A stretch of DNA of 64,000 bases, taken from positions 173,328 to 237,327 of the forward strand of contig CACKEY010000001.1 of assembly GCA_902599315.1 (NCBI GenBank), written 5' to 3'. This document shows positions 17,145 through 23,277 of the stretch, piece by piece; position 1 is the stretch's first letter; every line of letters begins with the position of its first letter. A program made the position numbers and the translations under genes. Source of the stretch: an uncultured SAR86 cluster bacterium. Its GTDB lineage: Bacteria; Pseudomonadota; Gammaproteobacteria; Magnimaribacterales; D2472. The notes beneath the pieces are model-generated. The model was given only the letters and a program-made list of their open reading frames with translations, had not been told where the DNA came from and did not search any database.

Positions 17145-18497
17145 TTGAATATTCATACTATTATCCTTGCAGCTGGTAAGGGCACTCGAATGAACACCAA
17201 TTTGCCAAAGGTTATGCAACCCCTTGGGGGGCAAACTTTAATTTCGCACGTTATTCAAACTGCAAAAGAAAGCAGTGAAAATATAACTGTTATTGTTGGC
17301 CATCAAAAAAATATCTTAAAAACTCATATAGCAAACATCGACCCTAATATAAAAACAGCAGATCAAGATGATCAGCTAGGAACAGCACACGCAGTCAAAA
17401 TGGCTTCGCATTTGATTAAGGATGATGAAAAAATATTAATTCTGTACGGCGATGTTCCCTTGATTAGCTCCAAAACTATAGAGGGACTTATGAATTCTGA
17501 ACACGAGTGCACGCTCCTAACTATGCAATTAAATGATCCAACCGGCTACGGCAGGGTGATTACAAATGGGCAAAACTTAGCTTTAAAAATTATTGAACAA
17601 AAAGATGCATCAGATGACGAACTTAAAATCGAAGAGGTTTTTACAGGTATTTTATTAATTGATGGAAGTTTGCTTAGACCTGCTTTAGAAGAAATTAAGA
17701 ACCAAAATTCAGCTAATGAATATTATCTTACAGACTTGGTGGAGATACTTTCTGGAAAAGGGGTTAAAATAAAATGTATTCATGCAAATCCTGCAGAAGT
17801 TTTGGGGGCAAACAATAAGCATGAATTACATGAGCTAGAATTAATTTTAAGAAAAATGAGCGCTAAAAAATTATTAGAACAAGGAATAACACTTATTGAT
17901 AAAACTCGTGTTGATGTTCGTGGCAAAGTCGTCGCAGGAAAAGATTGTTCTATTGATGTCAATGTTATTTTGGAAGGCGATGTTACCTTAGGCAATAACG
18001 TTACAATTAAATCAAATGTTGTTTTGCAAGATGTCCTCATTGGAGATAACTCGATCATAGAATCATTTAGCCATCTTTCATCAGCTTCAGTTGGTTCGAA
18101 TTGCAACATAGGCCCATATGCCCGCATTAGGGAGGGCACAGAGATAGGTGATAATGCAAAAATTGGTAATTTTGTCGAGACCAAAAAAACTAAACTTGGG
18201 GATGGCGCCAAAGCTAATCATTTAGCTTACTTAGGCGATGCAAACATTGGCGATAAAACTAATGTTGGCGCTGGAACCATTACATGTAATTACGATGGAA
18301 TAAATAAACATAAAACTTCTATTGGTGAAGATAGTTTCATTGGCACAAATTCTTCCTTGGTTGCACCAGTTAATATTGGTAAGGGCGCTTATGTAGGAGC
18401 CGGCTCTGTAATTACAAAAGATGTACCTGATAATGCTTTGGCTGTTGGTCGAGGCAAACAAGTTATCAAAGAAGACTGGGCAAAGAACAAAAAATAA
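17145..18497 (+). CDS. glmU: Bifunctional UDP-GlcNAc pyrophosphorylase / GlcN-1-P acetyltransferase GlmU
   Basis: 450 aa with a TTG start, the LAAGKGTRM nucleotidyltransferase motif and C-terminal hexapeptide (left-handed beta-helix) repeats. Confidence 0.95.
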   Translation: MNIHTIILAAGKGTRMNTNLPKVMQPLGGQTLISHVIQTAKESSENITVIVGHQKNILKTHIANIDPNIKTADQDDQLGTAHAVKMASHLIKDDEKILILYGDVPLISSKTIEGLMNSEHECTLLTMQLNDPTGYGRVITNGQNLALKIIEQKDASDDELKIEEVFTGILLIDGSLLRPALEEIKNQNSANEYYLTDLVEILSGKGVKIKCIHANPAEVLGANNKHELHELELILRKMSAKKLLEQGITLIDKTRVDVRGKVVAGKDCSIDVNVILEGDVTLGNNVTIKSNVVLQDVLIGDNSIIESFSHLSSASVGSNCNIGPYARIREGTEIGDNAKIGNFVETKKTKLGDGAKANHLAYLGDANIGDKTNVGAGTITCNYDGINKHKTSIGEDSFIGTNSSLVAPVNIGKGAYVGAGSVITKDVPDNALAVGRGKQVIKEDWAKNKK

Positions 18498-18498
18498 T

Positions 18499-20325
18499 AT
18501 GTGTGGAATTATAGGGGCGGCATCATCTCGCAACGTAGGAAAGTTATTAGTTCAAGGCCTTCATAAGATGGAGTATCGTGGTTATGACTCAGCAGGTATA
18601 GCCCTCCATCAAAAAGACAGTATTTTTAATTTAAGAACTTTGGGAAAAGTAAGTTTGCTTGAAGATGGAATGATTGAGCATCGGCCAAAAAGCAAACTTG
18701 GAATTGCTCACACTCGCTGGGCAACTCACGGTCAACCTTCTAAAGAAAATGCACACCCACACGCATCAAGTGGAGAGGTTCACATTGTTCACAACGGAAT
18801 TATAGAAAATTACCTTGAGCTTACAGAAAAATTAAAAAAGGCTGGATATGCTTTCCAATCTGAAACTGACTCAGAGGTCATAGCACACTTACTTCATCAA
18901 CACATACAATCAAGCGGCGATTTGCTGTCCGCTATGCATGACGCTATAAAAGAGCTTGATGGCGCTTACGCCATAGCGGCCATTCATATTAAAAATAAAA
19001 ACAGATTAGTCGTTGCAAGAAACAAAAGCCCATTATTGATTGGGCTAGGCCTAGAGGAAAATTTTGCTGCTTCGGACCCCTTAGCTTTATCACAACTTAC
19101 TAATAAGTTTGTATTTCTTGAAGATGGTGATGTTGCAGAAATAACCAAGCAAAGTTATCAAGTTTTCGACGGAAAGAGTTCCCCTGTTAAAAGAGATGTA
19201 ACTGAAATAGACATAGCAGTTAATTCGGCTACTAAAGGAGAATATTCTCACTTTATGGAGAAAGAAATATATGAACAGCCTGATGCTGTTGCCAATACCA
19301 TAAATGGGAAACTTGGAGATGAGGACGTATTAGATAATATATTTGGTTTAGGCTCATCAGAGCTTTTTAGTAAGATTAAAAGAATTCAGTTTGTTGCATG
19401 TGGAACAAGCTTACATGCAGGCAAAGTAGGAAGGTTTTGGTTTGAGCGAATAGCTAAAATTCCATGTTATGTAGATTTTGCGAGTGAGTATAGATATAGA
19501 GAGCCTCTTGTAGAAGAGGGCACATTGTTTGTTACCATTTCACAATCCGGAGAAACCGCAGATACTTTGGCTGCCCTCAAATACGCAAAAGAAAAAGACT
19601 ATTTAAGCACATTGTCAATCTGCAACGTTCCAACCAGTTCGTTGGCTAGAGAATCAGAGCATGTTCTTTTTACTAATGCTGGCCCAGAAATTGGCGTTGC
19701 ATCAACAAAGGCATTTACTACTCAGCTGGCAGGTTTGATGCTGTTAGCCATGTCTATTGCAAAAAGCTTAAATCAAGATAAAGAATTAAGAAAAAAATTG
19801 GCTAGTGAACTAAGAAATTTGCCAAAGGTGATCGATAAGACATTGAAACTATCAAATGAGATCATGAAGATCGTTCCTAATATTGCTGATAAACACAATG
19901 CTTTATTCTTAGGAAGGGGCATGTTTTTTCCAATCGTTCAAGAAGGCGCACTGAAATTGAAAGAAATTTCATACATTCACGCTGAGGCTTACCCAGCAGG
20001 AGAGTTAAAACATGGGCCACTGGCATTGGTCGACGATCAAATTCCAGTGGTGGCATTATCCCCTGAAAATACTTTAACTGAAAAACTAGTCTCCAACCTG
20101 GAGGAGGTAAAGGCAAGGGGCGGCACGCTTTATGTATTTGGTGGAGAAAATTCAAAAATTAAAATCGAAAGAGGTGAATACATTCAAATGCCAGAATGTA
20201 GCGAATTGTTAGCTCCAATTATTTATACCATTCCACTTCAAATTCTTGCATATCAAGTTGCATGCCAAAGAGGCACTGATTTAGATCAACCTAGGAACTT
20301 AGCTAAGTCAGTTACGGTGGAATGA
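18499..20325 (+). CDS. glmS: Glutamine-fructose-6-phosphate aminotransferase GlmS
   Basis: The start is set at ATG 18499 (MCGIIGA, Ntn catalytic Cys2), 1 nt after the glmU stop. The track ORF from 18421 is an upstream extension. The protein has two SIS domains and the universal C-terminus NLAKSVTVE. Confidence 0.97.
   Translation: MCGIIGAASSRNVGKLLVQGLHKMEYRGYDSAGIALHQKDSIFNLRTLGKVSLLEDGMIEHRPKSKLGIAHTRWATHGQPSKENAHPHASSGEVHIVHNGIIENYLELTEKLKKAGYAFQSETDSEVIAHLLHQHIQSSGDLLSAMHDAIKELDGAYAIAAIHIKNKNRLVVARNKSPLLIGLGLEENFAASDPLALSQLTNKFVFLEDGDVAEITKQSYQVFDGKSSPVKRDVTEIDIAVNSATKGEYSHFMEKEIYEQPDAVANTINGKLGDEDVLDNIFGLGSSELFSKIKRIQFVACGTSLHAGKVGRFWFERIAKIPCYVDFASEYRYREPLVEEGTLFVTISQSGETADTLAALKYAKEKDYLSTLSICNVPTSSLARESEHVLFTNAGPEIGVASTKAFTTQLAGLMLLAMSIAKSLNQDKELRKKLASELRNLPKVIDKTLKLSNEIMKIVPNIADKHNALFLGRGMFFPIVQEGALKLKEISYIHAEAYPAGELKHGPLALVDDQIPVVALSPENTLTEKLVSNLEEVKARGGTLYVFGGENSKIKIERGEYIQMPECSELLAPIIYTIPLQILAYQVACQRGTDLDQPRNLAKSVTVE
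20299..20325 (+). repeat. Reference copy of the repeat: the genuine last 27 nt of glmS
   Basis: TTAGCTAAGTCAGTTACGGTGGAATGA encodes L-A-K-S-V-T-V-E-stop. Confidence 0.9.
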
Positions 20326-20355
20326 GTTTGAACAGAGAATTATTAGAATAAAATT

Positions 20356-20742
20356 ATGAAAAAAATAGTTTTTTCTATATTCGCAATTCTATTCATCAAT
20401 GTTGTTAATGCAAAAACCTTGGTTCTAGAATGCAGTCAAATAACTTCAGGATTCTCTCTAAAATCAGAAGTAATAATTAATACGAACACAGGGTTTATTT
20501 CTATGCATGGTTGGATAGTAAAAGATGAATTTGCCTATTCTGAAGAAAGTGGAGAGATAGAAGCATGGGGCATCATTAAAGAGTATGGAAATGACTCTGA
20601 TTTTCGTCATATTAAATACCTTGAAAAGGAAAAAATTCTTGCCTGGTCTGACTCATTTTTTAGACCTCGAGGAGTATTCGGAGATAATCCTCCGCATAAA
20701 TATGTATCCTCAGGTAATTTCCAAATTTTGAAATGCCAATAA
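20356..20742 (+). CDS. Hypothetical secreted protein (cassette unit 1)
   Basis: 128-aa ORF with an N-terminal signal peptide (MKKIVFSIFAILFINVVNA). I recognise no family. Confidence 0.65.
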   Translation: MKKIVFSIFAILFINVVNAKTLVLECSQITSGFSLKSEVIINTNTGFISMHGWIVKDEFAYSEESGEIEAWGIIKEYGNDSDFRHIKYLEKEKILAWSDSFFRPRGVFGDNPPHKYVSSGNFQILKCQ

Positions 20743-20840
20743 AATATCTCTTTCTATTCTGCATATTTTCCATAATTTGCAGTGCAGGGAAAAGATTTTT
20801 ACCATATGAGAAACGATGGATAAAAAATCAAATCACTGTT

Positions 20841-20867
20841 TTGTTCAAGTCAGTGACGGTAGAGTAG
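20841..20867 (+). repeat. glmS 3'-end repeat, copy 1
   Basis: TTGTTCAAGTCAGTGACGGTAGAGTAG would read L-F-K-S-V-T-V-E-stop. It matches the genuine end at 18 of 27 positions by hand count. Confidence 0.75.
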
Positions 20868-20899
20868 ATTTGGAAAATGATTTATATAGGAGATACTAA

Positions 20900-21169
20900 A
20901 TGTTAATAGCAGTAAGAGCAGAAGTTGAGAGCGTTGATCACTGGAGAGAAAAATTTAAGACTCACGATGATTTATTTAAAAGTCAGGGCGTCTCTCTTGC
21001 ACATATGGGAACAGCAAATGATAAAACAGTAATTGCTGTTTTTGAAACAAACGATGTTGATAAGTTTGTAAGAATATTTAATGATCCTTTAACTGCAGAG
21101 GCAATGTCAGAGGATAAAATAACAGGCGGTGTTGAGATGTTTATTCTAGACGAGACCTTTGAATTATAA
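20900..21169 (+). CDS. Hypothetical small soluble protein (cassette unit 2)
   Basis: 89-aa ORF with an AGGAG Shine-Dalgarno 8 nt upstream. I recognise no family with confidence. Confidence 0.6.
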   Translation: MLIAVRAEVESVDHWREKFKTHDDLFKSQGVSLAHMGTANDKTVIAVFETNDVDKFVRIFNDPLTAEAMSEDKITGGVEMFILDETFEL

Positions 21170-21183
21170 AAAACAGGTTGAGT

Positions 21184-21210
21184 TTATTTCAATCAGTCAC
21201 GGTGGAGTAG
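21184..21210 (+). repeat. glmS 3'-end repeat, copy 2
   Basis: TTATTTCAATCAGTCACGGTGGAGTAG would read L-F-Q-S-V-T-V-E-stop and matches the genuine end at 19 of 27 positions. It also shares AACAGAGAAT at the same +6 offset after the stop (21216-21225 versus 20331-20340). Confidence 0.8.
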
Positions 21211-21242
21211 AACAAAACAGAGAATAAAAAGATTGAAGTAAT

Positions 21243-21521
21243 ATGAAAAAGTTTATTGGAATATTCCTGACTTCTGCATTTATATTTGCAGTTTTATTAT
21301 CTGAGTATGATAGTTATTATGGTTCTTGGTTATTTTATGCGCTGGGAATGATGATGGTTGCCCTAGGATATATTTATAAGGGTGAGGAAAATTCAACAAG
21401 TTGTTTTTGGGTTGGTTTATTCATAATGCTGATAACTTTTGTGGGCGCAAATGTTTCAGGAAAAATTTCTATCGAGACTATAGAAATCTTACGTGAGACT
21501 TTGGAAAACATAGAAGAATAG
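21243..21521 (+). CDS. Small membrane protein, paralog of 23991-24251 (cassette unit 3)
   Basis: 92 aa with about three TM helices. It aligns with the 86-aa ORF at 23991 through shared Y-x-D-x-Y, LY-x-LG, G-L-x-I-x-x-ITF-x-G and SG-x-I positions. Confidence 0.65.
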   Translation: MKKFIGIFLTSAFIFAVLLSEYDSYYGSWLFYALGMMMVALGYIYKGEENSTSCFWVGLFIMLITFVGANVSGKISIETIEILRETLENIEE

Positions 21522-21541
21522 TAAGAGTGATTTTTAAAATT

Positions 21542-22657
21542 TTAAATTACTTCCGCAAGAGAATTTAAACAATACTCAATATTCTTTTTATTGGAAGATT
21601 GTCCCATAAGTCCAATGCGCCAAACTTTTCCCGCAAGAACTCCAAGACCAGCTCCAATTTCGAGATTAAATTCGTTTAACAGTCTTTGTCTTGATTCAAG
21701 ATCATTTACACCATCAGGAATATAGATAGCATTTAATTGAGGCAATCTGTCCTCTTCTTTTACTAAAAATTCAATATTTAATTTTTCTAAGCCCTCTCGG
21801 AGTTGAAGATGGTTCTCTTTATGTCTTTTCCATGAATTTTCTAGGCCTTCTTCACTTAACATTATCAAGGCTTCATGAAGTCCATATAATGAATTTATTG
21901 GTGCAGTATGATGATAAGATCGGCCTGCTTCTCCTTCCCAATATGACATGATTAAGTTTAAATCATGAAACCAACTCTTCACTTTTGATTTTCTATTCTT
22001 AATCTTTTCTTTTGCAGCTTTACTAAAACTAATTGGCGATAAACCAGGAGAAGCGGACAAACACTTTTGTGTACCAGAATAAATTGCGTCAATTCCCCAT
22101 TCATCTACTTTTAAAGGAACTCCAGCCAAACCAGTTACAGTATCTACAATTGATAAACATCCGTGGTCATGTGCTAATTTTGTAATTGATTCTGGATCTG
22201 TAAGAGCCCCGGTAGAGGTTTCAGCATGAACTGAAGCAACAATTTTTGCATCCTTATGTTCATTTAAGGCTGATTCAATTTTATTTAAGTCTACTTTTGT
22301 TCCCCATTCATCATCAATAACTATTGGTATTCCACCAAATCGCTCAACATTCTCTTTCATTCTTTCTCCAAAGAACCCATTTTTAGCAATAATTACCTTG
22401 TCATCAGGCTCAACAAGATTCGCAAAGCAAGATTCCATACCTGCCATACCAGGTGCTGATAAGGCAAAAGTTAACTCATTCTGTGTTTGAAATGCATATT
22501 GAAGTAACTGTTTTGTTTCATCCATCATTGTTATAAAAATAGGATCAAGATGACCAATAGTTGGTCTAGCCATAGCCTCCAAAACTCTATCGCAAACGTC
22601 AGATGGACCTGGACCCATTAAAATCCTATTTGGCGGTGTGAATGAATTTATTTTCAT
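21542..22657 (-). CDS. Class V aminotransferase (alanine-glyoxylate / serine-pyruvate aminotransferase family)
   Basis: 371 aa with the N-terminal LMGPGPS motif and the PLP-lysine region SGTQKCLSASPG typical of the AGXT/SPT family. Confidence 0.85.
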   Translation of the reverse strand: MKINSFTPPNRILMGPGPSDVCDRVLEAMARPTIGHLDPIFITMMDETKQLLQYAFQTQNELTFALSAPGMAGMESCFANLVEPDDKVIIAKNGFFGERMKENVERFGGIPIVIDDEWGTKVDLNKIESALNEHKDAKIVASVHAETSTGALTDPESITKLAHDHGCLSIVDTVTGLAGVPLKVDEWGIDAIYSGTQKCLSASPGLSPISFSKAAKEKIKNRKSKVKSWFHDLNLIMSYWEGEAGRSYHHTAPINSLYGLHEALIMLSEEGLENSWKRHKENHLQLREGLEKLNIEFLVKEEDRLPQLNAIYIPDGVNDLESRQRLLNEFNLEIGAGLGVLAGKVWRIGLMGQSSNKKNIEYCLNSLAEVI

Positions 22658-22766
22658 GGCGATATGATACTAGATAAACACTTTTCTTTTGAAAAAATGG
22701 ATAGGAAAAAGTCTAAAAAAAAGTACTTAAGTATAATGGGCATAGGGTTTAATAAAGGTAGATAGT

Positions 22767-22793
22767 TTAATCTATACAGTGACGGCGGAGTAG
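22767..22793 (+). repeat. glmS 3'-end repeat, copy 3 (most decayed)
   Basis: TTAATCTATACAGTGACGGCGGAGTAG would read L-I-Y-T-V-T-A-E-stop and matches the genuine end at 16 of 27 positions. Its 17-nt core matches copies 1 and 2 at 15 of 17 positions. Confidence 0.7.
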
Positions 22794-22826
22794 AAAGATA
22801 AAATTAGCTTTTTTAGGGCTTAAATA

Positions 22827-23117
22827 ATGGAAATAAATTGGGTGATTATAGGTTGGCTAATCGACATGACTCTTAATGGTTTTGTGTGGCTTATCATTGC
22901 AGCATTTTCTTTGTTAATAATTGATGTGACTGACAAATGGACAAGAAAAGCTGTTAAGTTGATGGGTAAAGCTGATGATTGGATAAGAAAATTTATAGAA
23001 GACGACTTATTTGAATTTATTCAAAAGAAGAACCTTAAAATGCTTACTAGCATTATTTTGTTAATTATCTTTGGTATTCTGGCTCAACTAGGAATAATAC
23101 CGAAGCTTATAACTTAA
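22827..23117 (+). CDS. Hypothetical membrane protein
   Basis: 96-aa ORF with two hydrophobic helices. It starts 33 nt after repeat copy 3. Confidence 0.55.
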   Translation: MEINWVIIGWLIDMTLNGFVWLIIAAFSLLIIDVTDKWTRKAVKLMGKADDWIRKFIEDDLFEFIQKKNLKMLTSIILLIIFGILAQLGIIPKLIT

Positions 23118-23277
23118 TATATTAAGATAATGAAAGTAATTTCAAATTTAATCCGTTAGCGGGCGATAAACTTAGTAAAAAAACACGGATTACTTTTAAA
23201 ATAAAATTAAATCACCATATAAATTCTATAGTTGCAAAGTTGTTTCGTTTGCAGAATAAATTTTAGGAGTATCAAAT

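Follow-up and report, generated by a model that had tools for sequence, protein, structure and literature searches.

An integron-like cassette array, possibly served in trans, at the 3' end of glmS in a marine gammaproteobacterium

The 64-kb window analysed here (64,000 nucleotides of contig CACKEY010000001.1, from an uncultured SAR86 cluster bacterium) contains glmS, the gene of glutamine-fructose-6-phosphate aminotransferase, followed by three short copies of the end of that gene with small genes between them. The glmS 3' end at 20299-20325 encodes LAKSVTVE-stop, and the copies lie at 20841-20867, 21184-21210 and 22767-22793. A preliminary description of this DNA had reported these positions and letters, 18, 19 and 16 matches of the copies to the 27-nt glmS end (9, 8 and 11 mismatches), their spacings of 542, 343 and 1583 bp and a post-stop stretch, AACAGAGAAT, common to copy 2 and glmS. 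All of this proved exact, the matches also when counted by hand, and AACAGAGAAT was recovered as repeat family D3. The repeat unit itself was found again by a repeat search with a length of 39 nt (family D1). All copies are in frame with the glmS stop and read LFKSVTVE*, LFQSVTVE* and LIYTVTAE*, respectively (the asterisk denotes a stop codon). Their DNA likeness to glmS is limited to ~30-40 nt around the stop; it covers ~6 codons only and does not reach deeper into the gene.

A weight-matrix scan of the whole genome (1.44 Mb, 34.7% GC, 17 contigs) gave four sites with scores of 30-37, the next best match scoring 15.6. Hence, the similarity exceeds chance, as had been suspected. Since there are only these four sites genome-wide, a regulatory motif distributed over the genome was rejected; the motif is confined to the glmS locus. 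A consensus scan for promoters and terminators gave counts at chance level and revealed no terminator after glmS. Copies 2 and 3 are preceded by in-frame stops and are therefore not protein C-termini. Copy 1 alone forms the C-terminus of an ATG-started open reading frame (ORF), a 44-aa frame at 20733-20867 (+) that begins within the end of the lipoprotein gene. The features of the locus are compiled in the table.

Table. Features of the glmS locus, in coordinates of the window
Feature	Position	Strand	Content
glmS	18499-20325	+	GlmS (Pfam SIS + GATase); C-terminus RNLAKSVTVE*; anchor gene, its 3' end being the insertion site of the array
Chromosomal site	20299-20342	+	SVTVE*-encoding core of glmS and ~17 nt including the AACAGAGA arm; common with the closest relative to +17 past the stop; metagenome contigs diverge at 20323
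Cassette A	20343-20867	+	Leader; lipoprotein gene 20356-20742 (128 aa, no Pfam match); 3' site copy 1 (L-arm TCACTGTT 20833-20840, core 20841-20867)
Cassette B	20868-21210	+	Leader; c16 gene 20900-21169 (89 aa, no Pfam match); 3' site copy 2, 21184-21210
Cassette C	21211-22793	mixed	Leader; 92-aa membrane protein gene 21243-21521 (+); class V aminotransferase gene 21542-22657 (-); 3' site copy 3, 22767-22793
Oldest cassette	22827-23170	+	96-aa membrane protein gene 22827-23117; degenerate truncated site 23143-23170 (CAAATTTAATCCGTTA-GCGG)

To which neighbour a copy belongs becomes clear from a comparison between genomes. Pairs of non-glmS copies from different genomes show 80% identity across the 27-mer when they follow the same upstream gene, whereas pairs with only the downstream gene in common reach 68%, which is the level of random pairs (67%; permutation p<0.0005 for upstream versus downstream linkage). 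In 3/3 carrier genomes the gene of cassette B, termed c16, has an LFQSVT(V/A)E* site behind it and a different site in front of it each time, and the leader ahead of c16 travels with it. Consequently, a cassette consists of a leader, its gene or genes and a 3' site, and each copy is part of the preceding unit. In the preliminary description the copies were thought to be former glmS ends, pushed downstream by newcomers that each supplied a replacement; this origin is contradicted by the linkage. The accompanying proposal of a cassette array serviced in trans has to be revised accordingly: a cassette-like, glmS-specific array with boundaries at the copies is indeed present, and the displaced ends have to be given up.

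Within the array, cassette B together with its LFQ-type site was also found in two close relatives. An imperfect 19-nt inverted repeat (I4, 20833-20851 / 21205-21223) brackets this cassette exactly. The aminotransferase of cassette C is PhnW/BhcA-like, and wherever it occurs in relatives a LIY(S/T)xxxE* site follows. In the closest relative, the locus corresponding to the degenerate site at 23143-23170 carries an intact QIQSVTVE* site and ~820 bp more; the degenerate site likely marks a deletion in the genome studied here. As to the anchor gene, the ORF as called comprises 634 aa (18421-20325) and begins 26 codons before the canonical MCGIIG start at ~18499, the additional codons occupying 18421-18498 of the window. 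The GlmS matches of some relatives contain an internal stop, probably within this upstream extension.

By GlmS identity, the closest named genomes are AH-558-F20 (91%) and MED709, AG-435-A22, MED-G81 and a SAR92-cluster genome (60-67%), all of them marine and obtained from single cells or by metagenome assembly. These relatives have streamlined genomes of 0.7-1.8 Mb, and for the SAR86 lineage a genome size of 1.25-1.7 Mb has been reported (PMC3358033). The host order is thus probably that of the streamlined marine gammaproteobacteria of the SAR86 lineage.

In 16 relatives from the same genus, glmS is followed by 2-8 sites in the same orientation within ~6 kb. The sites separate units of 1-2 genes, whose content differs among these genomes and recurs in new orders; a distal block with the aminotransferase, the 96-aa membrane protein and a Zn peptidase is partly conserved. 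Four genomes of other genera likewise carry such arrays behind glmS; taken together with the genus relatives, the first ~6 kb hold 2-10 co-oriented copies per genome. A search with the exact SVTVE*-encoding pattern shows clusters of as many as 10 co-oriented sites in most of the family's genomes and likewise in three further families of the order, four families in all; a reversed-pattern control gives 0-1 matches per genome. Site copies cluster only after glmS. In family f4 many genomes hold 0-1 copies, and no copies were found after glmS in ~65 other bacteria, among them alphaproteobacteria and further gammaproteobacteria. The tie between the motif and its parent gene, as originally described, therefore holds within the genome, while the design as such spans four families of one order. 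The cassette adjoining glmS differs in almost every genome and is the most variable position of the array. Cassette genes mostly encode small or membrane proteins without assigned function, besides some methyltransferases, HNH nucleases and other enzymes; a protein with beta-lactamase fold is also encoded in the arrays of relatives, next to the HNH endonucleases and methyltransferases. The HNH nucleases could point to a homing-type movement for part of the cassettes.

Variation of the same kind is seen in natural populations, represented by the public marine metagenome runs in which the array region occurs. Contigs from two studies do not contain cassette B. Here, 20841 is joined to 21191 via a novel 6-nt stretch, which results in a site of the '*T*SVTVE*' type. 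Population contigs also break away exactly where glmS stops (20323), within copy 2 (21191) and just ahead of the next unit (22825), and the loose end at 22825 carries a further SVTVE* site. In several runs the depth over cassette A is close to zero (~0 at 20405-20767), and this cassette is missing from most of the natural population. The expectation that array units vary among relatives and in natural populations, with breakpoints at the copies, was thus borne out. For the c16 gene, 472 close homologs are present in marine metagenome contigs. In L133 (a contig of GCA_902626385.1, 3880-4010) it stands after a Zn peptidase and an acetyltransferase, with a degenerate IYTVMIE* site before it. These data suggest that the position of the c16 cassette gene varies from lineage to lineage. 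A link to phages was sought in viral contigs, where 17 exact matches to a 17-mer core turned out to be random, without glmS context, and thus uninformative.

The sites themselves have a characteristic structure. Inverted 8-bp arms accompany many of them, TCACTGTT at -8 in 17/62 and AACAGTGA at +32 in 22/62, which is 10-20 times more often than at random positions (1.5%). Pairing of the L-arm with CAGTGA of the core gives a small hairpin, and one full site folds at z -4.4. Among 47 internal copies, the mismatch to the consensus amounts to 4.6%, 4.3% and 41.8% at codon positions 1, 2 and 3, respectively, and 30 of the 47 encode SVTVE* exactly. The consensus internal copy, in turn, opens with a stop (*IYSVTVE*), and many copies follow in-frame stops. 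Hence, the internal copies are conserved in the manner of a coding sequence although they are not translated. To our knowledge, recognition of the glmS end has otherwise been described only for TnsD. This protein reads the conserved non-wobble positions in the last 36 bp of glmS (PMC2918618). The conservation of codon positions 1 and 2 in untranslated sites, together with the parallel to TnsD, suggests that recognition by a protein is what maintains the sites. More generally, the codon pattern points either to selection for recognition that is still at work or to a continual replacement of the copies from glmS ends.

The explanation that we favour, and to which we would give about an even chance, is that cassettes are captured at glmS by an integron-like system, with sites that mimic the glmS end and an enzyme acting in trans. 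The make-up of the array, the tie of a site to its upstream cassette, the changes at site boundaries among strains and in natural populations, the codon-structured conservation of untranslated sites and the occurrence in four families are direct results, whereas site-specific recombination as the process, and the enzyme performing it, are inferred. A cassette comprises a short leader with a ribosome-binding site and 1-2 small genes, followed on the 3' side by a putative recombination site of ~50 bp. The core of this site mimics the last six glmS codons (SVTVE-stop), often between the two 8-bp arms. Additions to the array most likely occur through recombination of a cassette site with the chromosomal glmS end. 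The newest cassette would then land beside glmS and older ones would shift downstream, as at attI. Recombination between two sites of the array may lead to loss or excision of cassettes. Their expression presumably relies on read-through from the glmS operon or on promoters of their own.

Several observations weigh against this explanation. Firstly, the recombinase responsible was not identified among the encoded enzymes. In agreement with the preliminary description no integrase lies in the 64-kb window, and none was found in any array examined. The tyrosine recombinases of this genome and of 31 genomes of the genus are XerC and XerD only, none of them near glmS. A serine resolvase, an rve transposase and TniQ were not found in the genome. 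TniQ was also not detected in 139 family genomes, nor in the control genomes, so that its absence is only suggestive. Secondly, RNA consensus folding of 31 site regions did not yield an attC-like consensus fold, and a folded site of the attC type was rejected for these regions, which have no conserved structure. Thirdly, some unit boundaries are without a site (c2/c28-c3), as is one loose end of the population contigs at 21538. A circular or tandem form is hinted at by only one contig, with a joint 21227->20901 and 33 letters on the short side, which does not suffice as evidence of a circular cassette. Finally, the junctions are not fixed: the divergence at the glmS end lies at +17 past the stop, that at copy 1 lies mid-core, and the population junction lies just before the core. 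Such varying positions suggest that exchange is driven by homology or microhomology and not tied to one fixed crossover point.

These junctions lead to the first alternative, namely homologous or homology-facilitated illegitimate capture, e.g. during natural transformation. Incoming DNA would pair over the glmS coding sequence, a microhomology joint would form downstream and the previous end would be displaced. Apart from the variable junction points, this is in line with the result that no encoded recombinase was found. Furthermore, 4/66 internal 27-mers are identical to a glmS-end variant, compared with 0.6 expected under the null, an excess above chance that is mildly informative only. Capture by homology, however, predicts that a copy is tied to the downstream cassette. 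The copies are instead tied to the upstream one and random with respect to the downstream one, which largely contradicts the model, and a glmS-likeness of ~6 codons also argues against pairing over the gene. We therefore consider this alternative unlikely.

Still somewhat less probable is the view that the arrays are immobile now, i.e. old, vertically inherited and decaying by repeat-repeat deletion, with the copies as relics. Close relatives do have long blocks in common, and the degenerate site of the oldest cassette represents one clear deletion in this genome. Relics, however, would hardly account for the codon-structured conservation that untranslated copies hold across genera, for the reappearance of cassettes at new positions and in new combinations from genus to genus, or for the variability of the newest-looking slot beside glmS. 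A Tn7-like, TnsD-guided transposition of small non-autonomous elements carrying a mimic of the TnsD site appears very improbable: TnsD reads non-wobble positions of the glmS end and inserts ~20-25 bp past the stop (PMC2918618), close to which this genome and its closest relative (L013) diverge (+17), but TniQ/TnsD was not detected in the 139 family genomes (nor in the controls), an rve/DDE transposase was not found in the genome, the units of 250-1600 bp are mostly coding, leave no space for Tn7 ends and, though no search was aimed at them, show no target-site duplications, and target immunity would prevent insertions in series.

With respect to the enzyme of the favoured capture system, a site of the Xer/dif type was considered and rejected, since 8-bp arms (TCACTGTT/AACAGTGA) with a 32-bp centre are unlike the dif site of the genome. 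A near-canonical gammaproteobacterial dif is located at C5:87074, with 3 mismatches from E. coli dif. We tentatively propose, at rather low confidence, an integrase-less capture system that is widespread in an abundant ocean order. A host or trans-acting recombinase, possibly XerCD or some other enzyme, might read the amino-acid-determining codon positions of the sites, which would allow exchange between distant strains whose glmS ends differ at wobble positions only.

If cassette capture at glmS is true, one of the most abundant bacterial groups of the surface ocean stores and exchanges cassettes without an integron integrase. The universally conserved 3' end of glmS, the classic 'safe haven' of Tn7, would serve as the docking site, and the flexible accessory gene pool of streamlined ~1.2-Mb genomes would be explained. 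It would then be testable how protein-like sites that vary at third positions persist untranslated and which enzyme drives the capture without IntI.

Four known systems are relevant for comparison. The ends of Tn7 contain TnsB binding sites, and its insertion produces a 5-bp target-site duplication. In contrast to Tn7, for which target immunity is typical, multiple tandem units each with a mimic of the glmS end are present here, and TnsA/B/C/D and TniQ were not found. Both nevertheless share the target, i.e. the conserved last codons of glmS at their non-wobble positions (PMC2918618), and the insertion just past the glmS stop. With tRNA islands and the tandem SCCmec elements at rlmH/orfX, the arrays have in common that repeated gene 3' ends bound tandem units. 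The units after glmS, however, are very small and encode neither integrase nor recombinase, and each copy belongs to the upstream unit instead of being a hybrid att of two neighbours. XerCD-dependent elements (IMEX and the pdif modules of Acinetobacter) are also small modules with inverted-arm sites that use host enzymes in trans, but their dif-like sites have 11-bp arms and a 6-8-bp centre compared with the 8-bp arms and 32-bp centre observed here. The attC sites of integrons are imperfect hairpins with extrahelical bases and R boxes. The sites of the glmS arrays, in contrast, mimic a protein-coding sequence, the C-terminus of glmS, rather than folded attC hairpins; the role of attI falls to an essential gene's 3' end, and the genome encodes neither IntI nor another integrase. 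In their organization the glmS arrays and integrons correspond to each other: both have a promoter-proximal insertion point, units of one (to two) genes each with a 3' recombination site, co-oriented arrays with the first cassette as the most variable, and an environmentally widespread cassette pool.

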